36,593 bases of DNA from Anaerolineae bacterium (GTDB lineage Bacteria; Chloroflexota; Anaerolineae; Anaerolineales; RBG-16-64-43): positions 1-36,593 of the forward strand of contig JBGOXY010000002.1 in NCBI GenBank assembly GCA_041479415.1. The letters run 5' to 3'. The position numbers and the translations under genes are program-made. Shown piece by piece: positions 256-31,253 of the stretch. Under the pieces are notes generated by a model, which was not told where the DNA came from, did not search any database, and worked only from the letters and a program-made list of their open reading frames with translations. Numbering within the stretch: position 1 is the first letter of the stretch; every line of letters begins with the position of its first letter.

Positions 256-1905
256 CTAGCCCAGGTAATCGCGCAGCGTGCGGCTCGAGCGCGGGTGGCG
301 CAGTTTGCGCAGCGCCTTGGCCTCGATCTGACGCACTCGCTCGCGCGTGACCCCTAGCCGTTGGCCGACCTCTTCCAGCGTGTGGTCGCGCCCATCCACC
401 AAGCCGAAGCGTAATTCGAGCACCTGTCGCTCGCGCTCGTTGAGGAACGCCAGCGCGCTGTGGATCTGATCGCGCAGCAGCTCGCGCGAGGCCGCATCGA
501 GCGGGGTCACCACGCTTTCGTCCTCGATGAAATCACCGAGCATGCTGCTTTCCTCGGCTCCCACCGGCGTTTCGAGCGACATGGGCTCCTGAGCCAGGCG
601 CAGGATGCGCTCGACGCGCTCCACCGCACGGGTCAACTTCTGGCCCAGCGCCGGCGGCAGCCGATCATCGGTGGCACGCAGGCGCATGACCTCCGCCGTG
701 TCCGCCGCATCCAGGATGTCCATCTCCAGCGCCAGCTCTTCGCGCGTGGGTTCGCGTTCCAACGTCTGCACCAGGTGGCGCTGTGCGCGCATCAGGCGGT
801 TGATGGTTTCAACCATGTGCACCGGGATGCGGATGGTGCGCGCCTGATCGGCGATGGCGCGGCTGATGGCCTGGCGAATCCACCAGGTGGCATAGGTGGA
901 GAACTTGAAACCGCGGGTTGGGTCGAACTTCTCTACGGCGCGCAGAAGCCCCAGGTTGCCCTCCTGCACCAGGTCGAGAAAGGCAATGCCGCGGCCAATA
1001 TAACGTTTTGCCACACTGACCACCAGGCGCAGATTGGCGCGGATGAGCGCCTTGTGCGCCTCCTCGGCCCGTTGCTCGATCGGGCGCAGCTCCGTCTCCA
1101 GGTTGCCCACCGCGCCTGAGCTGCGCGCGGTCGGTTTGCGCTTGGGCAGCCACGTCTGAAAGGTGCTCTTGATCGGAGGCGTCTTGCGCGCTTTGAGCGC
1201 CACCTGCAGCTTGCGGGCCAGAGCCTCCGGCAGGAGATACAACGCCACGAACACGTCGAACGCGTTCTGGGCCACCTTGTTCCAGGACGGGTCGCGGCCC
1301 CATGGGCCCCGTTCGAGCCAGGTGCGCAGATAGGAGGGCGCGCTGTCTTGCCATGCTGCGCGCAGGTGGAAGGCTTCATCGAGGAGCGGGGCCAGTTCCG
1401 GCAACGGCTGGCCGAGGCGCCGCGCATCCTCGCGCAGGTGTTTCCAATCGCTGAGCAGGTCGCCGTACAATTCGAGCAGGAAGAGCGTGCCGGGCGGCAG
1501 GCTGCGTTTTCCCGGGCCCAGCGCCGTCAGCCGCTCGCGTAGGGCGCGCGCGCGGCGCAGAGCCAAGAGGCGCGCCGCCAACCAGGTCTCCTGATCCGCA
1601 TTGAGCAAGTGCACCTGGCCGATTTCACGCAGGTACATGCGCACCGGGTCGTCGGCCAACTCGATCGTTTCGAGGACCTCTTCGCCCTCGATCTCCTCGC
1701 CCAGGCTTTCATCTTCGAGGGTTTCCAGCTCCTCCTCGCCCACCTCTTCTTCGGCGCCGTCGGAGGGTATTTCCTCCTCCACCAACACGCTCTCGTCGAC
1801 CTCGGCGTCTTCCTCGACGGGTGCGCCTTCGGGTGCGGCGAAGTCGGGCAGCCCCTCCAGGTCGTCTATCTCGTGCGGCGCAGAGTCCGGCCGTTGTCGT
1901 GGCAT
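256..1905 (-). CDS. rpoD: RNA polymerase primary sigma factor (sigma-70 / RpoD family)
   Basis: 549 aa with a very acidic N-terminus. Canonical region 2 ([54 protein letters not shown]) and region 4 ([29 protein letters not shown]). The ATG at 1905 abuts the dnaG stop (1906-1908), with GGAGG 8 nt upstream. Confidence 0.95.
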
Positions 1906-3885
1906 TCAGAATGCCTCCACCCCACCCTCACGGGATGCGGGCCGCGTCGTGGGCAGCGCGGGCAGGCCTCGAGCCAGGGCGATAGTGATTCGCAAGATGT
2001 TTTCGCTAATCGCCTTCATGCGTTCCAGCGGCGCCTCGCCCGGCTCCGCTGCGGCCGCCGGCACACCGCTCTCTTCCGACTGGGCTTCCTTCTCGAGGAT
2101 GTAAAAACGCAACTCGCCCAGCTTGCGCTCCAGCGCCTGTTGTCGCAGGCGCAGGAGACCTCCCAGCACATCATCCGCATCAGCCTCTTCGCCGGCCTGG
2201 AAGCGCTCGAGACTCGCGCGGGCCGCGGCCAGCGCCTCGGGCGCTTCTTGCGCGGCATGCGTTTCGATGAAGATGGCCGGGTCGGTTTCCTCCTGCGAGA
2301 GCGAGCGCTGGATGATCTCCAGCAGCCACTGACTCTCGGAGGTGGTGAGATCCTCTGGCCCGGGCCGCGCCAGCCCCAGTTCACCGAAGATGCGGTTGGC
2401 GCGAAACAGCAGCAGCGGTTGGCGCACAAGCGCTCCCAGGCAGAAGGCCTCGCGGCTGGAGGCCTTGGCCGCCATCCCCGCAGCCGGTGCGGCGGGCGCC
2501 GAGGGTGCCTCGCCGCGGCCGCCGCGCATCGTACTGCGGCGAGCCGGGCGCCGCCCGGGCGCAGCCTGCAACGACGCCAACTCCACTCGCAGCAATCGCG
2601 CCAGTTGCTGGCGATAAGCATCCCGCTCCACCGGGTCGGCGACGTCTTCAATGAGCGGCAGGATGCGCGCCGCGACCTCCGCCTTGACTTTGGCCTCGTT
2701 CAGGTTTCTGCCCTGGGTAATGACTCCCAGCACGTGCTCCACGACCGGCCGCGCCTCGGCAATGCGCTGACGCCAGGCCTCACGGTCTTGCAGGATGAGT
2801 TCATCCGGATCGAGCCCGGCCGGCAAAGTCGCCACGCGCAGGTCGGCTTGCAGCCTTCCTTCGAAACGAACCAATCCGCGCGCATCGAAGACGGGCTCGC
2901 CTTCGCGCTCGAGCGTCTCGCGCGCCAGGTCCAGGCCGCGCAGGGCGGCCGCGTCGCCAGCCGAATCGGCGTCCAATGCCAGGACAATACGTCGCGCATG
3001 GCGCTTGAGCATCCGCAGCTGGGCCTCGGTGAGGGCCGTGCCCATCGGCGAGACCACGTTAAGGAAGCCAGCCTGATGCGCAGTCATCACGTCGAGATAG
3101 CCCTCGACAATGACCGCCTCCTCTTGGGCGCGGATGGCGCGCGCGGCGCGATCCAGCCCGTACAACAGGTGGCCCTTATCGAAGATCGGCGACTGGGGCG
3201 AATTGAGAAACTTGGGCACGTCGTTGGGGTCGACGATACGTGCGCCGAAGCCGCACATCCGCCCGCGATTATCACGGATGGGGATGGTGATGCGGTTGTG
3301 GAAGCGGTCGCGCAGCCCGCCACCCTCGGGCGTGACCACCACCCCGGCCTGCTGGAGATCGTCGTCGGTGTAGCCCTTGCCGCGAAAATAGGACAGGCCG
3401 TGTTCGCGCCCGGCCGGGGCCAGCCCAACCTGGAAGGCTTCCAGGGTCTCGTCCGCGAGACCGCGCCCATGCAGGTAATCCCTCACCGTGGCACCGGCGG
3501 TGGAGGTAAGCAAGTAGTTGCGATAGTAGGTGGCGGCCAGTTCCAAGAGGCCGCGAAGATGTTCGTAGGTTTCCTCCGCCCGCTGCTCATCGGCCGAGCG
3601 CGGATGAAGTTCGATACCGGCGCGCGTCGCAAGCTGGCGCAGCGCCTCGGGGAAATCCCAGCCCTCTTTCTTCATGACGAACTTAAAGAGGTCGCCGCCC
3701 TCGTTGCACGCGCCGAAGCAGCGCCAGGTGCCGCTCTCGGGGAAGACCACAAAGGCCGGGGTGTGAACGTTGGGGTGAAAGGGACAGAACCCGATGTAGT
3801 TCTTGCCGGTGCGCCGCAGTCGGACGCTCTCGCTCACCAGCTCGACGATGTCGAGGCGTGCCTTGATGTCATCAACGGCGGTCAT
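1906..3885 (-). CDS. dnaG: DNA primase
   Basis: CHC2 zinc finger (CPFHPNVHTPAFVVFPESGTWRCFGAC) and a TOPRIM segment (VIVEGYLDVMTAHQAGF ... LALDADSAGDAA). I moved the start from the ORF-track 4008 to the ATG at 3885 (MTAVDDIKARLDIVELV), a typical primase N-terminus. The 41 upstream codons overlap a 17-bp hairpin. Confidence 0.92.
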   Translation of the reverse strand: MTAVDDIKARLDIVELVSESVRLRRTGKNYIGFCPFHPNVHTPAFVVFPESGTWRCFGACNEGGDLFKFVMKKEGWDFPEALRQLATRAGIELHPRSADEQRAEETYEHLRGLLELAATYYRNYLLTSTAGATVRDYLHGRGLADETLEAFQVGLAPAGREHGLSYFRGKGYTDDDLQQAGVVVTPEGGGLRDRFHNRITIPIRDNRGRMCGFGARIVDPNDVPKFLNSPQSPIFDKGHLLYGLDRAARAIRAQEEAVIVEGYLDVMTAHQAGFLNVVSPMGTALTEAQLRMLKRHARRIVLALDADSAGDAAALRGLDLARETLEREGEPVFDARGLVRFEGRLQADLRVATLPAGLDPDELILQDREAWRQRIAEARPVVEHVLGVITQGRNLNEAKVKAEVAARILPLIEDVADPVERDAYRQQLARLLRVELASLQAAPGRRPARRSTMRGGRGEAPSAPAAPAAGMAAKASSREAFCLGALVRQPLLLFRANRIFGELGLARPGPEDLTTSESQWLLEIIQRSLSQEETDPAIFIETHAAQEAPEALAAARASLERFQAGEEADADDVLGGLLRLRQQALERKLGELRFYILEKEAQSEESGVPAAAAEPGEAPLERMKAISENILRITIALARGLPALPTTRPASREGGVEAF

Positions 3886-3970
3886 CAGCTCTCTCTTGGG
3901 TGATGCCCGAGGGATTATACCCGCATCGCCAGCCGTATCGTGCACACCAGCGAATTCCATCTGCGCACGG

Positions 3971-4032: not shown

Positions 4033-4713
4033 TCAGGGAACAAAGATGCTTCCGCGCAGTGGCTTGTCGCCTCGCCCGCCCACGCCGAACTTGCTTCCAT
4101 CCGGCGCCTGCAGCATCCAGTAGCTGGTATGGGTCCCGCCCTCGTAGGGAGCGATCATGATCACGCCGATAAACATGTGATCGCCGGGCGGCACCTCTTT
4201 GGGGAAGGCCACCCAGTTGGCACCGCTCATGTGCTCGCCGCCGTAGAAGACCAGGCGGTAATCCCGAGTCCAGGTGCAGGTGCCGATATTGCGCACGTCC
4301 CACACTTTCTTAAAGGTTTCCGCCACACCCACCGGCGCACCATCGCCCAGACCCACATAGCCGACGAAGTAGGCCGCGTTGCACAGTTGCTCGAGCGGTG
4401 CGGCAGGGTTCGCTCCCGGCGTGCCGTAGGGTGCCCGCGTCAGCGAGTAGGTGGCGGAACCCTGCGGCGTTTCGCTGGGTGCAGTCGCGGAGGCCATTGG
4501 CTCGCTCACCCCGGGCGTCGTCCTCGCCAGCGCAGTGGTTAGCGCGGCCAGTGTGCCTGCCTCCGATTGCGTGGGTGCCGCCGCGGGTGGAGGCGTGGCC
4601 TGCGAAGCCGGCGCGCGCTGCAGTACCCCAGCTAAGTTGCATGCGAGCAGCGCGGCCGCGGCCACGGTCAATGGGAGGAGATTGCGAGTTCGATGATGGA
4701 ATGGCATCGGCAT
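4033..4713 (-). CDS. Secreted lipoprotein with a C-terminal NBR1-like (N_BRCA1_IG / FW-type) Ig domain
   Basis: Lipobox LLAC after a basic N-terminus (MPMPFHHRTRNLLPLTVAAAALLAC). C-terminal motif ETFKKVWDVRNIGTCTW ... YWMLQAPDGSKFG is typical of the NBR1-like domain. Start set at ATG 4713 (GAGG 4 nt upstream); ATG 4707 is an alternative. Confidence 0.72.
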   Translation of the reverse strand: MPMPFHHRTRNLLPLTVAAAALLACNLAGVLQRAPASQATPPPAAAPTQSEAGTLAALTTALARTTPGVSEPMASATAPSETPQGSATYSLTRAPYGTPGANPAAPLEQLCNAAYFVGYVGLGDGAPVGVAETFKKVWDVRNIGTCTWTRDYRLVFYGGEHMSGANWVAFPKEVPPGDHMFIGVIMIAPYEGGTHTSYWMLQAPDGSKFGVGGRGDKPLRGSIFVP

Positions 4714-5097
4714 GAGCCTCGACGCAGCACAAGGTGTGTGTGCGATTATACCCAGCCGCGAGCGACTTCTCGGCGCCGGTTCAGCGCGGCTCGTCTGATA
4801 CACGGGCATGCTGCCCCCTCCATCGTGATCGGCAGGGCCTAATTGGGATATCGCACACGCGTTGCACCCTCACGCGCTACGCCGCGGTATCCGCTGTGGA
4901 ATGGATCATCGCATGCCATGGCCCGCCTCGCTCGTCATCCAACCTTGCCGCGCGCTCTCGCCTTCGGCGGCCTTTCGATCGTGCGCCAGGCGTGGCGGAG
5001 TTTCCTCTGCCGCACGCCACGAGGTCCCTTCGCGGACTCACAGGTAAGGCATGACCACACCGCACGCTCGCACCGGTCATGCCCCGCCGCCCCTCCT

Positions 5098-5136
5098 CCA
5101 AAAGAAATCCCTCCCGCGCTGGTCATCGGGAGGGAT
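5098..5136 (-). terminator. Intrinsic terminator of the second NBR1-like gene
   Basis: ATCCCTCCCG (5107-5116) / CGGGAGGGAT (5127-5136), 10-bp stem. On the minus strand it is followed by TTCTTTTGG. It starts 27 nt after the 5164 stop. Confidence 0.6.
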
Positions 5137-5163
5137 GGAAAGGCAAAGGCTGTGCTCGTTGGC

Positions 5164-5835
5164 TCAGGGGACCACGATCTTCACCGTGAGCGGTGTCAGG
5201 CCGTTATCGCCCACGCCGAACTTGCTGCCGTCGGGCGCCTGCAACATCCAGTAGCCGATGTAGGTGCCCGACTTGGCCGGGGTGATCATCGTCACCGAGA
5301 GGAACAGATGGTCGCCGGGTTCGACGATCTCCGGGAAGCGCGCGGAGTTCGGGCCGTCCATGTGTTTGCCGCCGTTAAAGACCAGGTGGTACTCGCGGCT
5401 CCAGGTGCAGGTGCCGATGTTGCGCACGTCCCATGTCTTGCGGAAGGTTTCGCCGGCGGGGAGCACCGTGCCGTCCTTGAGCCCGATATCGCCGACGAAG
5501 AAGGCTGCGTTGCAGAATGTGGTCAGGGTCGGGTGTACGCCGGGCGTGCCGTAGAAGGCCGGGGTGAAGATGAGCGAGGCCGTGGCACTCGGCAGCAGCG
5601 GCACGGGCAGGGTGGCGGTGGCCGGCGGAAGGGTTGCGGTGGGCGGCGGCAGCGCCACGGTTGCGGTGGAGGTGGCGGCCAGCGCCACCTGAGTGAGCAT
5701 GGCTTGAACCGTTTGCGCAGCCTGAGTGGCCAGCGGCACCTCGGTGACAGCGGGCGCACCCGTGCTGCAGCCGGCCAGGACGAGCGACGCGGCCAGCACA
5801 GTCAACGCCAGGGTGCGCAAGGTGTGGGATGTCAT
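5164..5835 (-). CDS. Secreted lipoprotein with a C-terminal NBR1-like Ig domain (paralog of 4033-4713)
   Basis: MTSHTLRTLALTVLAASLVLAGC lipobox. C-terminal ETFRKTWDVRNIGTCTW ... YWMLQAPDGSKFG. Start set at ATG 5835, preceded by GAGGAGG. Confidence 0.78.
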   Translation of the reverse strand: MTSHTLRTLALTVLAASLVLAGCSTGAPAVTEVPLATQAAQTVQAMLTQVALAATSTATVALPPPTATLPPATATLPVPLLPSATASLIFTPAFYGTPGVHPTLTTFCNAAFFVGDIGLKDGTVLPAGETFRKTWDVRNIGTCTWSREYHLVFNGGKHMDGPNSARFPEIVEPGDHLFLSVTMITPAKSGTYIGYWMLQAPDGSKFGVGDNGLTPLTVKIVVP

Positions 5836-5886
5836 TCGGTCCTCCTCGTGCTTGGGTGTGCGGCGCATGGGCCGTTGCGGCCCGCC

Positions 5887-8391
5887 TCACGCCGCACCGA
5901 GCGCCTCCGGCTCGCCCTCCTGTTGCGGCGAGGGCTCACTCTCGGCCGCCTGAGGCTCGATCATCAGTTTGTCGTCGCGCAGCGCGATGGTCACCGTCTG
6001 ATCGTCGTGGATGCGGCCTTCGAGCATAGCCTCCGAGAGCATATCCTCCACTTCGGTCTGGATGACGCGCCGCAGCGGGCGGGCGCCCATCTCCGGGTTG
6101 TAACCCAGATCCGCCAGGCGTGCCTGGGCCTCGGGCGTCGCGCTCAAGGTGATGTGATGCTCCACCAGGCGCTGTGCCACTTTGGCGATCTCCAGGTTGA
6201 CGATCTGGGTGATGTCGTCCTTATCCAGCGCGCGGAACACGATCACCGCATCGACCCGGTTGAGGAACTCGGGGCGGAAGGCGCGGCGCAGCTCCTCGAG
6301 CAGCTTCTTGCGCATCTCGTCGTAGGGCGCCACCTCGCCGCGGGTCTCATCGCGCTGGATGGCAAAGCCCAGCCCGGCCTGGCGGCGGATGGTCTCGGCG
6401 CCCACGTTGGAGGTCATGACGATCATCGCGTTCTGGAAGTTGACCTTGTGGCCGCGTGCATCCGAGAGGTGCCCCTCTTCCATGATCTGCAGGAGCATGT
6501 TGTGCGCCTCGGGGTGCGCCTTCTCGATCTCGTCGAAGACGACGATCGAATACGGCCTCCGGCGCAGTGCTTCGGTCAGCTGCCCGGCATCGTCGTAGCC
6601 CACGTAGCCCGGGGGCGCGCCGACCAGGCGGCTCACCGTGTGGCGCTCCATGAACTCCGACATGTCGAGCTGCACCAGCGCGTCTTCCGAACCGAACATG
6701 AAGGCGGCCAGGGCTTTGGTGAGTTCGGTCTTGCCCACGCCGGTCGGCCCGAGGAAGATGAACGAGCCGATCGGGCGGCGCGGGTCCTTGAGCCCGGCGC
6801 GCGCCCGGCGCACAGCCTTGGAGATAGCCAGGATGGCTTCATCCTGCCCAATGATGCGCCCGCGCAGCGTTTCTTCCATCTTCATTAGGCGTGCCGACTC
6901 GGCTTCCGCGAGCTGCATCACCGGGATGCCGGTCCACATCGAGACCACTTCGGCGACATCTTCGGGCACCACGCGCGGGCCTTTATCGCGGTCGGCCATG
7001 ACCAGCTGCAGTTCCTGTCGCGACCGCTCCAGCTCGTTCTCCCGGTCCTGGATTTCCTCGGCGGCCTCGTAACGTCCTTCTTCGGCCGCCGTGGCACGTT
7101 CGGCCCGCAGGCGTCGCAGCTCGCCCATGATCTCCTTCAGGCGTTTGGCCTCCGGGCTCTTGTACATGCGCACGCGCGAAGCCGTTTCGTCGATCAGGTC
7201 GATCGCCTTATCCGGCAAAAAGCGATCGGGCACGTAGCGCCCGGAGAGGCGGGCGGCAGCTTCGAGCGCCTCGTCGGTGATCCGCAGGCGGTGGTGGTCC
7301 TCGTAGTTGCGGCGCACGCCGCGCAGGATCTGGATCGATTCCTCCACCGAGGGCTCCTCGACCATCACCGGCTGGAAGCGGCGCTCGAGGGCCGCATCGC
7401 TCTCGATGTGCTTGCGGTATTCGGTGAGGGTGGTCGCGCCGATCACCTGCAGCTCGCCGCGCGAGAGGGCCGGCTTGAGTATGTTGGCCGCATCAACCGA
7501 CGAGCCGGCTGCGCCGGCGCCCACCAGCATGTGGACCTCATCGATGAAGAGAATTGCGCCCGAGGCCTTCAGCTCGTCGATGACGCGCTTCAGGCGTTCC
7601 TCGAATTGGCCGCGGTACATGGTGCCGGCCACCAGCGAACCCACGTCGAGCTGCAAGAGGCGCTTGCCCATGAGCGGCGCGGGCACATCGTTGGTGACAA
7701 TGCGCTGTGCCAGGCCTTCCACGATGGCCGTCTTGCCCACCCCGGGCTCGCCGATGAGGGCCGGGTTGTTCTTGGTGCGGCGGGCGAGGATCTGAATGAC
7801 CCGTTCGATTTCGGTTTCGCGTCCGACGACCGGGTCGAGCTTGTTCTCCTCGGCCAGCGTGGTCAGGTCGGTGGCCAGTTGATCGACCAAGGGTGTCTTG
7901 GCTTTGTCGGCCTTGGCGCCGGCCGCGGCCGGCTGGCGTGCCTGGGCCGGGGCTTCCTGCAGCAGGCGGCGCGTCTGGCGGCGAACCTGTTCCGGGCTGA
8001 CCCCCAGGCGGCGCAACACGTCGATGGCCACGCCCTCCGGCTGGCGCACGATGCCCAGCAACAGGTGTTCGGTGCCGATGTAGTGATGGCCGAGGCGGCG
8101 CGCCTCGTCGATGGCCAGTTGCAGCACCTGTTCCGTATCGGGCGAGAGATCGATGCGTTCGGGGGTGGTGCGACCCGGCACGGATTGGCGCTCGACCATT
8201 TCCTGGACGCGCTCGGGCTCCAATCCCAGCTCGCGCAGCACGCGTCCGGCCACACCGCCTTCCTCGCGGATGAGGCCGAGCAACAGGTGCTCGGTGCCGA
8301 TTGTCGGGTGATGCAGTCGCTCAGCCTCTTGATGGGCTAGGCTGAGAACACGTCGTGCGCGCTGAGTAAAGCGTTCTAAGTTGTCGGCCAC
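5887..8391 (-). CDS. clpC: ATP-dependent Clp protease ATP-binding subunit ClpC (class I AAA+)
   Basis: 834 aa. Duplicated Clp_N repeats at the N-terminus, Walker A motifs GEPGVGKT and GPTGVGKT, and a UVR-like linker between the AAA+ modules. GTG start at 8391 preceded by GGAGAGGAAGG. Confidence 0.92.
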
Positions 8392-11048: not shown

Positions 11049-11431
11049 CTTCACTATCCGGAGAGGGACCTCACAATTCCGCACCACGGCACTTGCCCCC
11101 GACTCTCTCGGAACTCGCGTGGTTGTTATTGAGCCTTTAGGCCAGGGCTCTCCGCCGCAGTTCCTAGCTTGGATGGACGGGGTTTCATGGCCCGAATTGG
11201 CGTGAACCCATGCCGCCGAACGTGCGGCCATCCGGGTGGCTCCCAGCCACCCCAGGTCAACTGTTGCCTGCCTCCGAATCCTCCCGTCTCCATCCGATTT
11301 CCGGCGAACGCCTCCCATGCGTCTGGCTCGGCCATCCCCTTTGAGCGTGTTGGCCCGCCGGCGCGCCCCTCGATCCCGCCCGCTGCTCGTGGCGGGCCAT
11401 CACCAACACCGCGCACAAGGAGGAGCACCGC

Positions 11432-13468
11432 ATGAGTGCCAACCGTAGCGCAGGCATCTCGCCGGGCGAGTACTCGGCCGCGCCTCCAGGCGAGAAGATT
11501 GGTGTGTACATCTGCCACTGCGGCACCAATATCGCCGCCATGGTGGATGTCGCCGAGGTGGCCGAGTACGCCGGGGCTCTGCAGGGAGTGGCCGTCGCGC
11601 GCCACTACACCTACATGTGCTCCGACCCGGGCCAAGCGATGATCCAGGAGGATATTCGCTCGCTCGGCCTGGACCGGGTGGTGGTGGCCTCCTGCTCGCC
11701 GCTCATGCACGAGCCCACCTTCCGTGCGGCGTGCGCCCAGGCCGGCCTCAACCCGTTTCTCTTTCAGATGACCAACATCCGCGAGCACGTCTCGTGGGTG
11801 AGCGACGACCGTACCAGCGCAACGCAGAAGGCGCTGGCGCTGGTGACCGCGGCGGTGCGCCGGGTGTCGTTGCAGCAGCCGCTCGAGACCCGCCAACTGG
11901 GAGTCACCCAGTCGGCGCTGGTGGTGGGCGGCGGTATCGCCGGCATCGAGGCCGCGCTGCGCCTGGCCGATGCCGGCAAGCGAGTTTACCTGGTAGAGCG
12001 GGAGCCGTCGATCGGCGGCCACATGGCCCAGCTCTACAAGACCTTTCCCACCCTCGACTGTGCGGCTTGAATTCTCACACCCAAGATGGTGTCCGTGGGA
12101 CGCCATGAGAACATCACTCTCCTCAGCTACAGTGAGGTGGAAGCTGTATCCGGTTTCGTGGGGTCGTTCCAGGTGCGCGTGCGCCGCAAGGCGCGCCATG
12201 TGAAAGAAGACCTGTGCACCGGCTGCGGCACGTGCGTGCAGAAGTGCCCCTGGCGCAAGATCCCCTCCGAGTTCGACCTGGGCCTGGACACCCGTCCGGC
12301 GATTTACTTCCCCTTTGGCCAGGCCGTGCCGCGCGTGCCGGTCATTGACACCGAGCACTGTGTCTACTTCGCCAAGGGCACGTGCCGCGCCTGCGCCAAG
12401 TTCTGCCCGCGCGAAGCTATCGACTTCGAACAGACCGACCAGCAGCTCGAGCTCGAGGTGGGCACGATCATCCTGGCTACCGGGTTCCAGAACTACGATC
12501 CACACCGCGACACGCGCTTCGGCTACGGGGAACTTCCGGATGTGGTCACGGGGCCGGAGTTTGAACGCCTGGTGAATTCGGGCGGGCCCACCTTGGGGCG
12601 GGTGTTGCGCGCCGACGGCACCCCGCCGAAGAAGGTGGCCCTCATCCATTGTGTGGGCAGCCGCGGCGACGCACACGAATACTGCTCGCGCGTGTGCTGC
12701 ATGTATTCGCTCAAGCTGGCGCACCTGGTCCACGATGCGACCGGGGCCGAGGTGACCGAGTTCTACCGCGATATGCGCACCTTCGGCAAGGACTACGAAT
12801 CGTTCTACCGCCGCGTGGTTGCGGAGGGCATCCATACCTTCCGCTACGAGGGTGATGTGCAGGTGACCCAGGCCGATGGCCACTTGCGGGTGACTGCCAC
12901 CGACGTGTTCACGGGAAAGCCGGCCGAGATCGAAAGCGACATGGTGATCCTGGCCACCGGCCTCGAGCCGCAGGCCGATCAGCGGCAGGTGGCCCGCCGT
13001 TTCGGAGTGAGCCTCAGCCCGGACGGTTTCTTCATGGAGCGCCACCCCAAGCTAGCGCCGGTGGAAACAGCCAGCGACGGCATCTTCCTGGCCGGCACCT
13101 GCCAGGGGCCCAAGGATATCCCCGACAGCGTCGCCCAAGGGGGCGCCGCGGCGGCGGCCGCGCTCTCGCTGATGGATGCAGGCTACGTCTTTCTCGAGCC
13201 CTTCACGGTGCACGTGCTGGCCGAGCGCTGCAGTGGCTGCCGCACCTGCCAGAACCTGTGCCCCTTCGGCGCGATCCAGATGGCCGAGCACGAGGGACGA
13301 ACGGTCTCCACGATTAATGAAGTGCTGTGCAAGGGCTGCGGCACGTGCGCCGCCGCCTGCCCGGCCGGCGCCATATACCAGAACAACTTCTCCAATGATC
13401 AGGTCATCGCCGAAATCCTCGGGGCGCTGTCGATCGACCGCGCCATTCCTCAGGAGGCCTTCCCATGA
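11432..13468 (+). CDS. hdrA: Heterodisulfide reductase subunit A family flavoprotein with predicted selenocysteine at codon 213 (TGA 12068-12070 read through)
   Basis: ORFs 11432-12070 and 12086-13468 share one frame and are separated only by TGA plus 5 sense codons. The joined protein (678 aa) has the full HdrA layout. N-terminal Cys domain: GVYICHCGTNIAAM. FAD fold: ALVVGGGIAGIEAALRLA. Junction: GGHMAQLYKTFPTLDCAA-U-ILTPKMV. Inserted ferredoxin domain: CTGCGTCVQKCP ... CRACAKFCP. C-terminal 2x[4Fe-4S]: CSGCRTCQNLCP, CKGCGTCAAACP. AAGGAGGAG lies upstream of the ATG. Confidence 0.85.
12068..12106 (+). promoter_or_regulatory. UGA(Sec) recoding site with a SECIS-like hairpin
   Basis: TGA at 12068-12070. 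Hairpin ATGGTGTCC (12086-12094), loop GTG, GGACGCCAT (12098-12106): 9 bp including one G-U wobble. The apical loop begins 25 nt after the UGA and starts with GU, consistent with the bacterial SECIS geometry. Confidence 0.62.
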
Positions 13469-16400
13469 ACCGTTCCTCCCCCCGGACGGGCGTCTATGTC
13501 TGCCAGTGTGGGACCAATATCGCCGCGACGGTGGAGGTGCAGCAGGTAGCCGAGTTCGCGCGCGACCTGCCGGGCGTGGTGGCCGCCCGCAGCTACAGCT
13601 ATATGTGCTCCGAGCCCGGCCAGGCGCTGATCAAGCAAGACATCCAGGACCACGGCCTCAACCGCGTAGTGGTGGCCTCCTGCTCGCCGTTGATGCATGA
13701 GCCCACCTTCCGGCGCGCGTGCACCGAGGCCGGCCTCAACCCGTTCTGCATGCAGATGGCCAACATCCGCGAGCATTGTGCCTGGGTCATCGACGACCGC
13801 CAGCAGGCCACCGCCAAGGCCAAGCATCTGGTGGCGGCCGCGGTTCGCCGAGTGGCGCAGCACCGCCCGTTGGAGATGCGCCAGGTGCATGTGGAGCCAG
13901 CCGCGCTAGTGGTCGGTGCGGGCATCGCCGGCATCGAGGCCGCACTGCGCTTGGCGGAGGCCGGCAAGCAGGTCTATCTGGTGGAGCGTGAGCCGTCGAT
14001 CGGCGGCCACATGGCCCAGCTGTACAAGACCTTTCCCACCCTCGACTGTGCGGCTTGAATACTCACACCCAAAATGGTGTCCGTTGGACGCCAAAAGAAC
14101 ATCAAGCTGCTGAGCTACAGCGAAATCGAATCGGTTTCAGGCTATGTGGGCAACTTCGAGGTGCGCGTGCGGCGCAAGCCGCGCTACATCGACGAGAGCA
14201 AGTGCACTGGCTGCGGCAATTGCGCCAGCGTCTGCCCGATCGAGGTGACCAACGTCTTCGACCTGGGGCTGAGCACGCGCCGGGCGGTGTACCGGCACTC
14301 GCCGCAAGCCGTGCCCGGCGCGTATACGATTGAGAAGCGCGGCATCGCCCCATGCCGCAATGCCTGCCCAACGGATCAGCGCGCCCAGGGCTACATCGCC
14401 CTGGTTCGTCAGGGGCGGTTCGCCGATGCCTACTGGGCCATCCGCCGCGAGCATCCCTTCCCCTCGGTGTGCGGACGCGTCTGCAATCATCGCTGCGAAG
14501 ATGCATGCACCCGGGGCAGCTACGACCAACCGGTCAACATCATGGCCCTCAAGCGTTTTGTCGCGGATTGGGCCTTCGACCATCGCGACCAGCTCCCGGC
14601 CCAACGCGCCAAGTCACTCACCGGCACGCCCTTCGCCGCGCACCCCACCGCGAGCGGCAAGAAAATCGCGATCATTGGTGCCGGGCCCGCTGGGCTGACC
14701 ACCGCCCTCGACCTGGTGCGCCTCGGCCACCAGACCACGGTGTTCGATTCGCTGCCGGTGGCCGGCGGCATGATGCGCGTGGGCATCCCGCCCCATCGCA
14801 TGCCGGTGGAACTCCTCGAGTGGGAGATTCAGCAGATCCTGGATGAGGGCGTGCAACTTCGCCTGAACACGTGGGTGGACGACATCCCGGCGCTGCTCGA
14901 CCAGGGCTACCATGCGGTGCTCATCGCCACCGGTGCCCATCAAGCCAAGAAGATTCCCATCCGCAACTCGAACCATCCCGACAACTGGCTCAGCCTGAAC
15001 CTGCTGCGGCGCGTGGCGCAGGGCGAGGCGATCGACCTGCGCGAGCGCAGCGTGATCGTGATGGGCGGCGGTAACGTGGCCCTCGACACGGCGCGCACGG
15101 TGGTGCGCCTGGGGGCCCGCCAAGTGAGCATGGTGTGCCTCGAGCCGCGCGGCGAGATGCCCGGCTTCGCCTGGGAAGTGGAGGTGGCCGAGCAGGAGGG
15201 TATCCATGTCCTGCCCGCGCGAACCTTTAAGGAAGTGGTGGTCAAGGGCAACCGCATCGCCGGGCTGCGCTGCGCCGAGGTTGTCTTCCGTGGCTTCAAG
15301 CGCGGGCGGCCCGATATCAGCGAGATTCCCGGCACCGAGCACGTTGTGCCCGGCGATCTGGTGATCTGGGCCATCGGGCAAGGGCCGGACTTCTCCTTCC
15401 TGCCCGGCGACGGCAGCATCAACACGTGTTATCCGGTGGGTATCCAGACCAACAGCGAGATGATGACCACCACCCCGGGCGTGTTCTGCGCGGGCGATGT
15501 GCGCCGCGGGCAAACCTTCTTTGTGGTCGACGCCATTGGCGAGGGCCACCACGCTGCGCGTTGCATCGACCGTTATCTACGCGGCGAGCAGGGCGTGCGC
15601 GAACCGCATCGGCCGCCGGTGGTGGAACTGCGCCGCGAGGAGATCGAGCACAAAGTGGAGTTGGGCGAAGCCGCGCGCCGTCCGCGCGCGGTCATCCGCA
15701 ACATCGGCGTGGAAGCGCGCCGGCTCAACTTCCGCGAAGTGGATCTCACGCTGACCGAAGCCGAGGCGGTGGCCGAGGCCGAGCGCTGCCTGCGCTGCGG
15801 AATATGCTCCGAGTGTCTGGAGTGCGTCTCGGCCTGCGAGCGAGGGGCGATCAACCACGACATGCAGCCCGAGATCTTGGATCTCAAGGTGGGCACGTTG
15901 GTGCTGGCCACCGGCTTCCGCGATTTCGACCCGCGGGTGGCTCCCGAGCTGGGCCATGGGCGCCTGGCGAATGTGCTGAGCGCCATGGAGTTTGAGCGGC
16001 TGATCAACACCGGCGGCCCGACGCTGGGCAAGGTGCTGCTCGCCAACGGCCAGCCGCCCAAGCGGGTGGCCATCGTGCACTGCGTGGGCAGCCGCGACGA
16101 CCGCTACCACGAGTATTGCTCGCGCGCCTGTTGCATGTACTCGCTCAAGATCGCCCAACTGGCACACGAGTACCTGCAGGCGGAAGTGTTCGAGATCTAC
16201 CGCGACATGCGCTCCTTCGGCAAAGGCTACGAGGAGTTCTACAACCGCACCCGCGCGAGCGGCGTTCACTTCTTCCACGGCCGGGTGCGCGAGGTGACGG
16301 CGGTTGATGGTCACTTGCGCGTGCAGTGGGAAGAGAGTTTCCACAACGAGCCCGACCAGGTGGACGTGGACCTGGTGATTCTCGCCACGGGCATGGAACC

Positions 16401-16887
16401 GCAGGGCGATACGGCACGCATGGCGAAGCTGTTCGGTCTCTCACGCAGCCGGGATGGGTTCTTCCTCGAGCGCCATCCGAAGCTCGCCCCGGTGGAGACC
16501 TCCTCGCAGGGCATCTTCCTGGCCGGAGCCTGCCAGAGTCCCAAAGACATCCCCGACACGGTGGCGCAGGCTGCCGCAGCAGCGGCTGGCGCGCTGGCGC
16601 TTATCGACCAGCACACCATCAGCCTGGATCCCTCCATTGCCGAGGTGGAGGTAGCGCGCTGCCTGGGCTGCGGCCAGTGTGCAGCCGCCTGCCCATATGG
16701 AGCCATTGAACTGGCGCGCGGCAAGGCCGCGGTCAACGCCTACTTGTGCAAGGGCTGCGGCACGTGCGCCGGGGCGTGCCCGAACAAGGCCATGAGCCTC
16801 ATCCATTTCGACGACCGCCAGTTGATTGCCGAACTGGACGGCGCCCTGGCGTGGATCGATGCCGCCGAAGAGGTGGGCCATGTATGA
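13465..16887 (+). CDS. HdrL-type giant HdrA paralog: HdrA with an inserted NfnB/GltD-like NAD(P)H:FAD oxidoreductase module, predicted selenocysteine at codon 198 (TGA 14056-14058)
   Basis: ORFs 13465-14058 and 14074-16887 are in one frame and join to 1140 aa. The N-terminus parallels hdrA (GVYVCQCGTNIAAT ... FPTLDCAA-U-ILTPKMV). After the first ferredoxin half-motif (CTGCGNCASVCP) comes a glutamate-synthase-small-subunit-like block. That block shows CRNACP, CGRVCNHRCEDAC, KKIAIIGAGPAGLTTALDL, VIVMGGGNVALDTA and GVFCAGDV. The HdrA fold then resumes (CLRCGICSECLECVSAC ... LATGF ... CLGCGQCAAACP, CKGCGTCAGACP). ATGA overlap with hdrA; AGGAGG upstream. Confidence 0.85.
14056..14093 (+). promoter_or_regulatory. 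UGA(Sec) recoding site with a SECIS-like hairpin (paralogous copy)
   Basis: TGA at 14056-14058. Hairpin TGGTGTCC (14075-14082), loop GTT, GGACGCCA (14086-14093). Same UGA-to-loop spacing (25 nt) as the first copy. Confidence 0.62.
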
Positions 16888-17368
16888 ACCCAAGGTGATC
16901 GGATTCCTGTGTACCTGGTGCAGCTACACCGGCGCCGACTCGGCCGGCACCTCGCGCCTGAAGACCCCATGGAACCTGCGTGCCGTGCGCGTGCCGTGCT
17001 CCGGGCGCGTGGCGCCGGAGCTCATCCTGCGTGCCTTCGACCAAGGGGCCGACGGCGTGCTGGTGCTCGGCTGCCACATCGGCGAATGCCACTACGACAG
17101 CGGCAACCATCGCGCCGCCAAGCGCATCCCGCTGCTCCTCTCCATCCTGGAGTTTGCCGGGATGCAGCCCGAGCGGCTGCGTTTGGATTGGGTGTCGGCC
17201 TCGGAGGGTGATCGCTACGCGCGGATCGTGAGCGAGTTTGTCGACGCGCTGCGCCCACTCGGGCCAAACACCTGGCGCATCAACGGCGCCGCCCCAAGGG
17301 CCGACGCGGCGATCGGCATGCCGCTGCCGGCGGCGTCGGGGCTGAGCGGAGGCGCGCCATGTCCATAA
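16880..17368 (+). CDS. MvhD / FlxD-like [2Fe-2S] electron-transfer subunit (methyl-viologen-reducing hydrogenase delta family)
   Basis: MYEPKVIGFLCTWCSYTGADSAG ... VRVPCSGRV ... DGVLVLGCHIGECHY is the MvhD signature. Start set at ATG 16880, which overlaps the upstream stop (ATGTATGA). Confidence 0.86.
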   Translation: MYEPKVIGFLCTWCSYTGADSAGTSRLKTPWNLRAVRVPCSGRVAPELILRAFDQGADGVLVLGCHIGECHYDSGNHRAAKRIPLLLSILEFAGMQPERLRLDWVSASEGDRYARIVSEFVDALRPLGPNTWRINGAAPRADAAIGMPLPAASGLSGGAPCP

Positions 17369-18252
17369 GCGAAGCCATGCAATCCGCGGCGCGCGATGTG
17401 CTGGCCTCCGGCCAGGTGCAACGGGTCATCGGCTACGAGACCGGCCCGCACGGCCGCGTTCGCCCGGCGATCATCGACCGGCCGGAGGAGGCCGAGCGCC
17501 TGGTGTGGAGCGCGGACTGCACACATAACCTGACTGTCTACCTGCACCGCGCCTTGACCGGCGAGAACGGCCGTGCCTCGCGCGAGGCCGTGGCTCCGCC
17601 GGCGCGCGTCGCCATCGTCGTCAAGCCGTGCGACAGCCGCGCGATCAACGTGCTGCTCGCCGAGCATCAGTTCTCACGCGAGCAGGTCTTCGCGATCGGC
17701 ATGGCCTGCGAGGGGATGCGCCAGGGCGCGCCGGCCAGTGCGCCGGAGGCGACGTTGCAGGCACGCTGCCTGCGCTGCCGCGAGCGGGTGCCGGTGGTCC
17801 ACGATGTACTGCTCGGCGAGCCGCCGAGCGCGTTGCCAGAGGCGCTGCCGGACGAGGCGCTGGCGCACGTGCGCGACCTGCCGCCGGCCGAGCGGGCCGC
17901 CTTCTGGCTCAGCCAGTTTGACCGGTGCATTCGCTGCTACGCCTGCCGCCAGGCCTGCCCGATGTGCAATTGCCCGACCTGTCTCTTCGAACAAGAGGAT
18001 GCACTGTGGGTGGGCATGCGCATCGCGCCCTCCGAGAAGCGCACCTTCCACTTGGGGCGTGCGCTGCACCTCGCCGGGCGCTGCGTCGGCTGCAACGAGT
18101 GCGAACGCGTGTGCCCGATGGGCATTCCGATTGGGTTGCTCAACCGCCATCTGGCGGAGACCGTCGAGAGCCTGTACGGTCATCGGGCCGGGATGCAGCC
18201 GGTGCTCTCACCGGTGACGGGCATGCTCAGCGCGGAGGAGAGTGCCCCATGA
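17359..18252 (+). CDS. Fe-S subunit, FlxC-like (HydB/AsrA-related, 2x[4Fe-4S] motifs)
   Basis: 297 aa with VKPCDSRAINVLL, CIRCYACRQACPMCNCPTC and CVGCNECERVCP. Size and motifs match FlxC of FlxABCD-type clusters. No CCG motif, so it is not HdrB. Overlaps the mvhD-like gene by 10 nt. Confidence 0.72.
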   Translation: MSISEAMQSAARDVLASGQVQRVIGYETGPHGRVRPAIIDRPEEAERLVWSADCTHNLTVYLHRALTGENGRASREAVAPPARVAIVVKPCDSRAINVLLAEHQFSREQVFAIGMACEGMRQGAPASAPEATLQARCLRCRERVPVVHDVLLGEPPSALPEALPDEALAHVRDLPPAERAAFWLSQFDRCIRCYACRQACPMCNCPTCLFEQEDALWVGMRIAPSEKRTFHLGRALHLAGRCVGCNECERVCPMGIPIGLLNRHLAETVESLYGHRAGMQPVLSPVTGMLSAEESAP

Positions 18253-19247
18253 AGACTCTCTCGCGAGAGAATCTCAACCTCTGGCTGGATGGGCTGGCGG
18301 CGCAGCACGCGCTCATCGCCCCGCACCTCGAGGCGCCGGGCGTGTTCTATCGTCCGGTGCAGCGCGCCCAGGAGATTGCATGGGAGGCAGGCCGCCCGGT
18401 GCTCTCGGCCAAGGAATTCCTCTTTCCCCCCAGCGAACGACTGCTCAAGGTGGAGAAGCGCGGGCCGGACGTCCGTCTGGAGGCCAGCCCTTCCGCCGCG
18501 CCGCAAGTGATCTTTGGCTTGCGCCCGTGCGATGCGCGCGGCATCCGCGTGTTGGACACGGCCTTCGTCGATACACCGCCGATTGACTCCCGGTATGCGA
18601 GCCGCCGTGAGAACACGCTGCTCGTGGGGCTGGCCTGTCGCAGCATGGGCGCCTCCTGCTTCTGTACCGCCGTGGGCCTGGCACCGGATGACCCGCGCGA
18701 CATGGACGTGATGTTCAGCGATCGCGGGGCGACGCTGGCCGTGCAGGCCCTGACTCCGCGCGGCGAGGCGCTCATCGCCAACCTGCCGCTCGTCGAAGAG
18801 CTAGGGGAGGTGGAGCCCGCCTCGCGGCGAGAGGTGGGCGGCCTGCCAACGGCCGAGGCATGGAAAGAGAGTTACAGTGACGCGCGGTGGGCAAAGCACG
18901 GCGAGCGCTGCCTGAGCTGCCGCCTGTGCGCTTACGTCTGCCCCACCTGCCGCTGTTACGACGTACGCGATGAGGCGTTGCCCTCCCCGCCGGGCGAGGC
19001 ACACTTCGAGCGGTTGCGCGCATGGGATAGCTGCATGCGCGAAGGCTACCGGCTCACAGCCGGCGGGCACAACCCGCGCGCGGCTTCAGGCAGCCGCCTG
19101 CGCAACCGGCTGCTGTGCAAGTTCGTCTACTACCCGCATCAGTATGGCCCTGCCGCCTGCACCGGTTGCGGTCGCTGCCTCGACGCATGCCCGGTCAACC
19201 TCGACCTGCTCGAGATCGGCGGCGCGCTTCAGGAGGCTGCCCAATGA
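18249..19247 (+). CDS. Fe-S subunit, FlxB-like (sulfhydrogenase beta / AsrA-like)
   Basis: 332 aa with FGLRPCDARGIRVLD, CFCTAVG, CLSCRLCAYVCPTCRCYD and CTGCGRCLDACPVNLD. Start set at ATG 18249 (ATGA overlap) rather than the ORF-track 17925. Confidence 0.76.
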   Translation: MKTLSRENLNLWLDGLAAQHALIAPHLEAPGVFYRPVQRAQEIAWEAGRPVLSAKEFLFPPSERLLKVEKRGPDVRLEASPSAAPQVIFGLRPCDARGIRVLDTAFVDTPPIDSRYASRRENTLLVGLACRSMGASCFCTAVGLAPDDPRDMDVMFSDRGATLAVQALTPRGEALIANLPLVEELGEVEPASRREVGGLPTAEAWKESYSDARWAKHGERCLSCRLCAYVCPTCRCYDVRDEALPSPPGEAHFERLRAWDSCMREGYRLTAGGHNPRAASGSRLRNRLLCKFVYYPHQYGPAACTGCGRCLDACPVNLDLLEIGGALQEAAQ

Positions 19248-20089
19248 GCACAGCCGACGGCGCCGATCCGATGTATCCACTCCTGGGGCGATTGGTTTCC
19301 AGCCGCGACATGGGGCGCGAGATCAAACTGCTTGGAGTGAAGCTGCTCAATGGAACACAGCCCCGCTTTCCGGCTTACGCGCCGGGTCAGTTCGCCTTCC
19401 TTTCGGCGTTCGGAATCGGCGAGGCGCCCTTCGGGCTGGCCTCCACCACCGAACGAGGCGAAGTGCTCGAGTTCGCCGTGCAGCGCCTGGGGTCCGTGAC
19501 GACCGGCCTGCACGAGCTGGCCGAGGGCGATGCGCTGGGGGTGCGCGGCCCCCTGGGCAACACCTTCCCGATGGAGGCCTTCCAGCACAAGAACCTGCTC
19601 GTGCTCGGCGGCGGCATCGGCGGCGCGCCGTTGCGCCCGGTGATTCACAGCGTACTCGACCACCGCCAGGATTATGGTCAATTGACCATTCTGTGGGCAG
19701 CGCGCCATCCCTCGCTGCTCATATTCCGCGACGAATACGAAAGCTGGCGCGCCGCGCCGCACACCGAACTACACCTGACCGTGGATGAGGCGGATGCCGC
19801 GTGGGATCATCACGTGGGCTTGATGACGGATCTCGTGCGGCAGGTGGCGCCCTCGGCCGCCAACACCGTCGCCATCACCTGTGGGCCGCCGATCATGATC
19901 TATCACGTCGACAAGCTGCTCAGCGAACTCGGCTTCGCGCCCGAGCAGCGCTACGTCACGCTCGAGGCGCGCATGCACTGCGGCCTGGGCAAGTGCGGAC
20001 GATGCAATATGGGCGAGCTCTTGGTGTGCCGCGACGGGCCGGTCTTCTCCATGGCCCAGGTCGGCAATTTCTTGGAGAGTTACTTGTAG
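19244..20089 (+). CDS. FAD/NAD(P)H-binding oxidoreductase with C-terminal [2Fe-2S], FlxA-like (sulfhydrogenase gamma / AsrB / PyrK family)
   Basis: 281 aa. Ferredoxin-reductase-type fold (PGQFAFL, LLVLGGGIGGAPLRP, ITCGPPIM) and a C-terminal CGLGKCGRCNMGELLVC. Start at ATG 19244 (ATGA overlap, AGGAGG at 19231-19236). Confidence 0.84.
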   Translation: MSTADGADPMYPLLGRLVSSRDMGREIKLLGVKLLNGTQPRFPAYAPGQFAFLSAFGIGEAPFGLASTTERGEVLEFAVQRLGSVTTGLHELAEGDALGVRGPLGNTFPMEAFQHKNLLVLGGGIGGAPLRPVIHSVLDHRQDYGQLTILWAARHPSLLIFRDEYESWRAAPHTELHLTVDEADAAWDHHVGLMTDLVRQVAPSAANTVAITCGPPIMIYHVDKLLSELGFAPEQRYVTLEARMHCGLGKCGRCNMGELLVCRDGPVFSMAQVGNFLESYL

Positions 20090-30707: not shown

Positions 30708-31253
30708 ATGAGCCAGCCCACGCCTTCCACCTCACCCGGCGGCACCCCGGCTTATCGTGAACTGCTGACAAGCTCGTTGTTGATGGGTCTGGGGGGCTGG
30801 GCGCTCATTGCCGCGCTCGTCTTTCTCGTCACGCCCACCCTCGGCCCGCGCTGGGCGTTCTTCTTCGCGCTCTTCATCGCCCTGGTGGGCACCTCCATTC
30901 CGCTGCTGTGGTACCTCAATCGCCGTTTCTCGCCCGATCCATTCCCGAGCCCAGGCGTGCTATGGCGCGAGGCCGTGGAAGTCGGCGTCTGGGGGTTGTT
31001 CCTTGTTTGGCTACGCGTCGGGCGCCTGCTCACCCCCTTTGCCGCATGGACGCTGACCGGCGCTGTCTTCGCCGTGGAGCTCCTGCTGCGCCTGTATGAG
31101 CGCAGCCGATGGGCGCCATCGACCTCTTTGCCTTCGCCCGCGGCCCCTGTGGAAGCAACGCCCCCGGCCGAGGCGGCCGAGCCGCCGACGGCATCGCTCG
31201 TCACGCCACCTTTCATCGACGATGAGTTGGATTCGGACGATTCGCCCGCATGA
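30708..31253 (+). CDS. Membrane protein of unknown function (4 TM segments, acidic Pro-rich tail)
   Basis: 181 aa with hydrophobic segments and a C-terminal PPFIDDELDSDDSPA. Its stop overlaps the selA start (ATGA). Confidence 0.62.
   Translation: MSQPTPSTSPGGTPAYRELLTSSLLMGLGGWALIAALVFLVTPTLGPRWAFFFALFIALVGTSIPLLWYLNRRFSPDPFPSPGVLWREAVEVGVWGLFLVWLRVGRLLTPFAAWTLTGAVFAVELLLRLYERSRWAPSTSLPSPAAPVEATPPAEAAEPPTASLVTPPFIDDELDSDDSPA

Follow-up and report, generated by a model that had tools for sequence, protein, structure and literature searches.

An in-frame UGA splits two tandem HdrA-family genes of an Anaerolineales bacterium, which are predicted to encode selenoproteins

Does the UGA that interrupts two neighbouring HdrA-family genes of an Anaerolineae bacterium end their translation, or is it read as an amino acid? 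The question is raised by a stretch of 36,593 nucleotides (GenBank assembly GCA_041479415.1, contig JBGOXY010000002.1, positions 1 to 36,593 of the forward strand; GTDB lineage Chloroflexota, Anaerolineae, Anaerolineales), referred to below as the window and numbered from its first letter, in which hdrA and the adjacent hdrL-like gene are each broken by a TGA at the same point. An earlier sequence-only reading, made without database searches, had predicted that HdrA is a selenoprotein mis-called as two open reading frames (ORFs). The present analysis supports this prediction through a conserved hairpin, the identity of the UGA column in alignments and the lack of Shine-Dalgarno sequences at the internal ATGs, and indicates that hdrA and hdrL are very probably both bacterial selenoprotein genes in which UGA stands for selenocysteine (Sec). 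The genes and codons concerned are the following.

11432–13468, forward strand: hdrA, predicted single selenoprotein gene of 678 amino acids (aa), HdrA-family flavo-iron-sulfur protein; upstream Shine-Dalgarno sequence AAGGAGG; stop codon TGA 13466–13468.
12068–12070, forward strand: predicted Sec codon (UGA) of hdrA, codon 213, at the CxxU position, which corresponds to Cys197 in 5ODC and to Sec197 in 9SFI.
13465–16887, forward strand: hdrL-like, predicted single 1140-aa selenoprotein gene, in whose product a GltD/NfnB-like NAD(P)H module is inserted into HdrA.
14056–14058, forward strand: predicted Sec codon of hdrL (UGA, codon 198); the surrounding motif is that of hdrA, FPTLDCAA-U-ILTPKMV.

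The upstream hdrA ORF (11432–12070) is closed by TGA 12068–12070, which is followed by the five sense codons ATT CTC ACA CCC AAG (ILTPK, 12071–12085) and by an ATG at 12086 that lies in the same frame and opens a reading frame extending through 13468. When the halves are joined, the 678-aa protein reads FPTLDCAA-U-ILTPKMV across the junction. The junction in hdrL is identical, with its TGA 1988 nt downstream of that of hdrA, and the hdrA stop codon overlaps the hdrL start (ATGA). The shared frame of the two hdrA ORFs and the recurrence of the arrangement in a paralogue 2 kb downstream, both claimed in the sequence-only reading, can thus be read directly from the window.

We scanned the window for in-frame TGAs that have 60 or more open codons of high third-position G+C content (GC3) on each side. 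Only two of the 14 sites returned, those in hdrA and hdrL, interrupt identified genes; the others are gene ends or belong to antisense or shadow frames in a window of 66% G+C. The GC3 coding signal is unbroken across both TGAs. TGA is otherwise an ordinary stop codon that ends 16 of the 22 confident genes of the window, hdrA and hdrL included, and global reassignment of UGA was rejected on this ground. The true stops of hdrA and hdrL (13466–13468 and 16885–16887) are themselves UGA codons, each overlapping the next start codon, and the same mRNA would therefore read UGA once as Sec and once as a stop in each gene.

Residues 21–667 of the joined HdrA are colinear with the solved HdrA chains 8RVU, 5ODC, 7BKB and 9SFI (E values from 1e-184 to 1e-212), and Pfam finds Pyr_redox_2, flavin adenine dinucleotide (FAD) and Fer4 domains. 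Neither half alone represents a complete HdrA, as had been stated. The joined protein spans positions 1–646 of NF040770 (NCBIfam HdrA2) with a score of 804.6, below the cut-off of 1100, and its score of 596 against NF041778 (cut-off 1400) falls short of an equivalog-level match to methanogen HdrA/HdrA2. It is therefore described here as an HdrA-family protein and not assigned as a CoB-CoM heterodisulfide reductase. In the hdrL product, Fer4_20 (residues 295–373) and Pyr_redox_2 (400–694) domains are found inside an HdrA framework, making up an inserted GltD/NfnB-like module of residues about 295–694, and mvhD follows at 16880. Such a fusion of HdrA and GltD, named HdrL, has been described in Desulfobacterium autotrophicum (PMC2702500), and the gene at 13465–16887 appears to be of this type, the likeness being one of domain layout.

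In the HMMER alignments, the UGA column coincides with the second Cys of the DCxxC motif, where the sequence-only reading had placed it. The equivalent residue is Cys197 in HdrA of Methanothermococcus thermolithotrophicus (5ODC), Cys in 8RVU and 7BKB, and a non-standard residue, printed as X, in chain A of 9SFI. The latter structure is the Methanococcus maripaludis Hdr-Vhu-Fwd complex solved by cryo-electron microscopy (cryo-EM), whose authors describe Sec197 (PMC13518236); for archaeal HdrA in general, a single Sec at the 'canonical position ~200' has been reported (Mariotti et al., PMC4989117). The replacement of this Cys by Sec in Methanococcales, stated in the sequence-only reading, thereby holds, and Sec-containing HdrA of Deltaproteobacteria, also named there, belongs to a documented bacterial selenoprotein family (PMC1794560). 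The alignment of the joined 678 aa with both Cys and Sec structures, which had been suggested as a check, shows that the UGA column is the Cys/Sec column. Among the best 120 database homologues, 119 are full length and the remaining one is the C-terminal part of the present hdrA product, 460 aa long; all 119 full-length homologues, which show the motif, have Cys at the UGA column.

If the UGA terminated translation, the genes would be genuinely split, hdrA giving a 212-aa FAD-domain fragment and a 460-aa protein started at ATG 12086, and hdrL giving products of 197 and 937 aa, with the parts assembling non-covalently. This is how public gene calls treat the locus, since NCBI, JGI and ENA alike split each gene in two (in DATEAT01, an Anaerolineales metagenome-assembled genome (MAG), as HLC33494.1 of 212 aa, HLC33495.1 of 457 aa, HLC33496.1 of 197 aa and HLC33497.1 of 937 aa), and an ATG does stand five codons past each UGA. 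However, these internal ATGs lack a Shine-Dalgarno sequence, as had been noticed for hdrA: the energy of the duplex with the anti-Shine-Dalgarno sequence is +0.4 kcal/mol, as opposed to −9.5 to −11.2 kcal/mol at the starts of hdrA, hdrL, mvhD and flxC. The internal ATG is the Met codon of the conserved ILTPKM, again as proposed, and this Met is also present in single-chain Cys homologues. The break falls inside the FAD-binding fold, exactly at the invariant Cys. Split genes would also give no reason for the conserved hairpin past the UGA, in which synonymous sites are frozen (see below), and selA is present. We consider it very improbable that the genes are split.

Past each UGA we identified a hairpin with the features of a bacterial selenocysteine insertion sequence (bSECIS).

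12086–12106, forward strand: predicted bSECIS hairpin of hdrA, 9-bp stem AUGGUGUCC / GGACGCCAU, apical loop GUG at 12095–12097.
14075–14093, forward strand: predicted bSECIS hairpin of hdrL, 8-bp stem UGGUGUCC / GGACGCCA, apical loop GUU at 14083–14085.

The hairpins start 18–19 nt past the UGA (24 nt in the spacing as scored), and the 30-nt segment from UGA +15 to +45 has a minimum free energy (MFE) of −13.6 kcal/mol in hdrA and −12.1 kcal/mol in hdrL. The bacterial SECIS consensus comprises a loop of 3–9 nt with a G in its first two positions, an upper stem of 4–16 bp, a spacing of 16–37 nt and an MFE of −7.5 kcal/mol or lower (PMC13188914), and both hairpins fit all of these, with 3-nt loops, stems of 9 and 8 bp and the spacing of 24 nt. 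Because this consensus is unspecific in a G+C-rich window, the hairpin call rests on comparative data and not on the fold alone. The single-sequence folding z-scores are weak for hdrA (−1.3, −1.1) and moderate for hdrL (−2.3, −2.4). With the peptide and the codon usage of the window fixed, 0.22% of synonymous recodings of hdrA and 0.66% of those of hdrL fold as well as the natural sequence. The terminal UGA of hdrL is also followed by a weak hairpin that passes the consensus (loop GUG, −8.3 kcal/mol, spacing 30), an example of how little the consensus discriminates in this DNA.

Among the matches listed, 81 unique relatives of the MVSVGR type have the stem codons GTG (81/81), TCC (81/81), GGA (80/81) and CGC (81/81), while the Val codon in the loop varies (GTG in 37, GTT in 36 and GTC in 8) and four-fold codons flanking the hairpin have an entropy of 1.1–2.2 bits. 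Across lineages, no fewer than five distinct stems are found at this position. A hairpin GGCCUC-GGU-GAGGUC, encoding the peptide ASVRSH, is found at loci mostly labelled Dehalococcoidia; further stems are GACGUCC/GGACGUC, GGUUUCC/GGAAACC and AUGCU-GGA-AGCAU, and Thermodesulfobacterium has GGGCG-AGGU-CGCCC. The peptide differs between lineages and the hairpin persists. The consensus hairpin was detected in 140 of 142 unique UGA forms, taken from genome contigs, and in 17 of 115 UGC/UGU forms, obtained from metagenome contigs with the same pattern containing TGY (Fisher 4e-50), with mean MFEs of −10.7 and −4.5 kcal/mol, respectively (p about 1e-36), a contrast inflated by the unlike taxonomy and source of the two sets. 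After PKM, nearly all UGA forms continue as VSVGR(H/Q), VSVGQH or ASVRSH, and the Cys forms have dozens of peptides (VEAAAHE, VDAANHE, SAVRSHP and others). The SECIS appears to constrain the local protein sequence.

A different possibility is that the UGA is read through but selenium never enters the mature protein, either by near-cognate suppression with Trp or Cys or by insertion of Cys through the Sec pathway under selenium limitation. The nearest full-length relatives do function with Cys at this site, and selB, selC and selD were not found in the window or the 6 kb downstream. The window nevertheless encodes one enzyme of the Sec pathway, as the sequence-only reading had pointed out:

31250–32629, forward strand: selA, L-seryl-tRNA(Sec) selenium transferase, intact; TIGR00474 score 545 bits (cut-off 268).

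To our knowledge, selA has no role other than Sec synthesis. Moreover, the hairpin has SECIS features of the SelB type and is specific to UGA forms. Leaky suppression would supply two core redox enzymes inefficiently, and yet, among the matches listed, many genomes of two Chloroflexota classes, Anaerolineae and Dehalococcoidia, retain the UGA. Read-through without dedicated Sec insertion is therefore, in our judgement, highly unlikely.

Independent assemblies of this organism from JGI and ENA contain both TGAs, with one further member of the fragment clusters coming from Logan, and the TGAs are kept in two related MAGs, Anaerolineales bacterium SMAG_U8225 (DATEAT010000007.1), to which the window is 95.5% identical, and Chloroflexi bacterium RBG_16_64_43 (93.6%), so they are real features of the genome and not sequencing errors. 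A reading of the TGAs as lesions of pseudogenes or errors of assembly, which nothing favours beyond the internal stop itself, is effectively refuted by recurrence and conservation, given that the same codon is found in the independent assemblies, in each of the paralogues and, in other genomes, in 142 unique sequences, that the GC3 signal does not change across it and that both halves retain 69–74% aa identity across species.

Several observations weigh against a selenoprotein assignment. The organism is uncultured, and selenoprotein status is predicted from the sequence. At 66% G+C the SECIS consensus is permissive: 29% of the TGA trinucleotides of the window pass it, as do 4 of the 16 terminal TGAs, and 4–9% of the 30-mers downstream of TGAs fold as strongly as the candidate hairpins. 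The p-values of the comparison between Sec and Cys forms overstate independence, because the sets differ in taxonomy and source. Column-wise covariation is modest, with 84% of cells paired and double changes at 4 pairs in few cells, in part because the other main hairpin type, that of Dehalococcoidia, is offset by 1–2 nt. As for the Sec machinery, selA is the only such gene in the examined sequence, that is, the window and 6 kb downstream. ARAGORN detected no tRNA in this sequence and no tRNA-Sec in any of 247 loci, and domains of the SelB or SelD type were not found among the scanned genes of the window or the genes called in the next 6 kb; the contigs end 0.4–0.8 kb upstream of the window, and the ENA contig is 130 kb long. 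At the other loci examined, selA was not found near hdrA. Against Rfam, the whole window had no match at gathering thresholds, and the surroundings of the two UGAs had no relevant one at E values up to 10. In favour of the assignment, the use of Sec in Chloroflexota is documented (PMC1794560 Table 2; PMC13582414).

Immediately upstream of selA, a gene at 30708–31253 (forward strand) encodes a 181-aa predicted membrane protein with several hydrophobic segments and a Pro/Ala-rich acidic tail, which has no Pfam or NCBIfam match and occurs in all assemblies of the organism. Its stop codon overlaps the selA start (ATGA), so the two are probably co-translated; a role tied to selenium, for example in uptake, is pure speculation.

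With UGA read as Sec, decoding could proceed as follows. A ribosome arriving at UGA 12068 or UGA 14056 of the operon mRNA would meet a compact stem-loop 24 nt downstream. By analogy with decoding in Escherichia coli, SelB loaded with GTP and Sec-tRNA(Sec) would bind its G-U apical loop, Sec made by SelA, whose gene lies 17 kb downstream, would be delivered, and translation would continue through ILTPKM. This would yield HdrA at 678 aa and the HdrA/GltD fusion at 1140 aa, and in both proteins a C-x-x-U pair would lie next to the bifurcating FAD. Judging from homology to Sec197 of M. maripaludis HdrA, this pair would cycle between the selenol/thiol and selenylsulfide states and might carry electrons between the FAD and an Fe-S cluster.

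Between 11432 and 20089, the start of each gene overlaps the stop of the one before it; together these genes form an operon, hdrA-hdrL-flxDCBA, whose distal members are listed below.

16880–17368, forward strand: mvhD/flxD-like [2Fe-2S] subunit with an FlpD domain, a Cys form without internal UGA; overlaps the hdrL stop.
17359–18252, forward strand: small Fe-S protein with two [4Fe-4S] clusters, like the N-terminus of GlpC and HdrC, in an FlxC-like position.
18249–19247, forward strand: HydB/AsrA-like Fe-S subunit (FlxB-like); strong Shine-Dalgarno sequence at its start, 18249.
19244–20089, forward strand: HydG/AsrB-like FAD/NAD(P)-binding [2Fe-2S] subunit (FlxA-like); Shine-Dalgarno sequence at its start, 19244.

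MvhD and the GlpC-like protein both belong to known Sec families, and Sec was considered in each and rejected, their ORFs being intact Cys forms. No protein with the CCG domain, and hence no candidate for hdrB or hdrC, was found among the genes of the window. The MvhD-, FlxC-, FlxB- and FlxA-like partners, together with the NAD(P)H module of HdrL and the lack of HdrBC, suggest by analogy that the complex is likely to be an NAD(P)H-linked module for flavin-based electron bifurcation or confurcation, of the Flx/Hdr type, and not one for reduction of CoM-S-S-CoB.

Scanning of the GTDB species-representative genomes with the pattern DC[AS]A-TGA-ILTPKM showed that at least 119 stretches carry the UGA motif, many of them in Chloroflexota. 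In tblastn searches with the joined proteins, alignments pass straight over the UGA in many species, with HdrA at 69–74% aa identity and HdrL colinear and full length in at least 10 species. Many Anaerolineae genomes have two UGA-HdrA motifs about 2.0 kb apart, hdrA preceding hdrL as in the window; in other Anaerolineae the spacing is about 3.4 kb and the order apparently hdrL then hdrA. Loci of the ASVRSH type (mostly Dehalococcoidia) usually have one motif, and two cultured species of Thermodesulfobacterium also match the UGA pattern. We lean towards the view that the module of Sec-HdrA and Sec-HdrL, with Flx-like partners, is a lineage-wide Chloroflexota selenoenzyme of Anaerolineae and Dehalococcoidia that is systematically mis-annotated and has compact SECIS types of its own; these may be GGUGUCC-GUN-GGACGCC in Anaerolineae and GGCCUC-GGU-GAGGUC in Dehalococcoidia, which would dictate the peptides VSVGRH and ASVRSH, respectively. 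If this view is correct, core electron-bifurcating metabolism would depend on selenium in abundant Chloroflexota of soils, aquifers and sediments.

The immediate consequence is for annotation. Four database proteins, such as HLC33494.1 to HLC33497.1, should be two selenoproteins, and at least 119 stretches of the GTDB species-representative genomes are affected by the same error, which skews domain counts, pangenomes and metabolic models for Chloroflexota. For the uncultured Anaerolineales, the assignment implies that an NAD(P)H-linked module of the Hdr/Flx type requires selenium. Natural Cys/Sec pairs that differ at the C-x-x-C/U site of HdrA, next to the bifurcating flavin, would also become available from one more phylum; the role of this site was left open by the authors of a 2026 cryo-EM study.

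Other features were noted in and around the window. ORFs of 639–764 aa run antisense to the clpC-like gene (4843–6888, forward strand), hdrA (11126–13045, reverse strand) and dnaG (1609–3903, forward strand); they are shadow ORFs typical of 66% G+C DNA and had no family match where tested. Between dnaG and the clpC-like gene, 4033–4809 (reverse strand) and its neighbour at about 5164–5868 (reverse strand) encode adjacent N_BRCA1_IG (Ig-like) proteins. Beyond position 1 of the window, directly past rpoD, there is a transposase-like gene (HTH_Tnp_1; ENA contig k141_2021837, 12000–12497 in locus L245), and a repeat at this gene may explain why assemblies break there. At the other end, a system-I cytochrome c maturation cluster (ccmA/B/C-like, ccmF, ccmH and a thioredoxin-like gene) extends from 35834 onward and through 6 kb beyond, accompanied by a gene for a 626-aa protein with several cytochrome c domains; these genes indicate that the organism is not a purely fermentative anaerobe.

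Sec-containing HdrA, a long-established selenoprotein of Methanococcales, was catalogued in bacteria in 2006, when 16 genes were listed, including tandem hdrA-hdrA pairs in Deltaproteobacteria and copies in Clostridia (PMC1794560), and Sec-HdrL, with tandem hdrL/hdrA genes each followed by mvhD, was described in 2009 (PMC2702500). The Chloroflexota genes therefore extend a known selenoprotein family to another lineage. A full-text search, in an incomplete collection that makes it weak evidence of novelty, found no paper describing Sec-HdrA in Chloroflexota. The additions made here are modest. Chloroflexota MAGs commonly have this arrangement, often as a tandem pair about 2 kb apart and with lineage-specific compact SECIS variants, and public data systematically mis-split it. 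This amounts to an annotation correction with a modest taxonomic extension, and the understanding of Sec decoding and of HdrA is unchanged.

The Sec-HdrA of Methanococcales (M. maripaludis HdrAu, PDB 9SFI/9T1S, and M. jannaschii) has the same fold, aligns colinearly over its full length (E value 3e-189), carries Sec197 of its C-x-x-U beside the FAD in the same column, and likewise has an mvhD/vhuD-type gene downstream. In contrast to the archaeal genes, whose SECIS is in the 3' untranslated region, the genes described here have the hairpin 24 nt past the UGA, within the coding sequence. The archaeal enzyme reduces CoM-S-S-CoB together with HdrBC and Vhu/Fdh, whereas the operon in the window contains no hdrBC or hydrogenase genes, and its HdrA scores under the NCBIfam cut-offs for HdrA/HdrA2 (805 versus 1100).

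Judging from published descriptions, the genes of Deltaproteobacteria (Syntrophobacter fumaroxidans; HdrA1/A2 and HdrL1/L3 of D. autotrophicum HRM2) belong to the same selenoprotein family and share the tandem hdrA/hdrL with mvhD, the HdrL composed of HdrA and a GltD NAD(P)H module, and the in-frame bacterial SECIS (PMC1794560, PMC2702500). They differ in that the present host is a member of Chloroflexota (Anaerolineales), its MvhD is a Cys form, and the partners are FlxC/B/A-like in place of Frh/Mvh hydrogenase, Fdh or Dsr genes.

The subunit types beside hdrA (HydG/AsrB-like, HydB/AsrA-like, small Fe-S and MvhD-like) resemble, at the domain level, those of the Flx-Hdr system of Desulfovibrio vulgaris. 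That system, FlxABCD-HdrABC, was reportedly presented by Ramos and colleagues in 2015 as an NADH dehydrogenase/heterodisulfide reductase. Compared with it, the operon of the Anaerolineales bacterium has the reverse order (hdrA-hdrL-D-C-B-A), lacks hdrBC, and encodes two HdrA paralogues, both of them predicted Sec forms.

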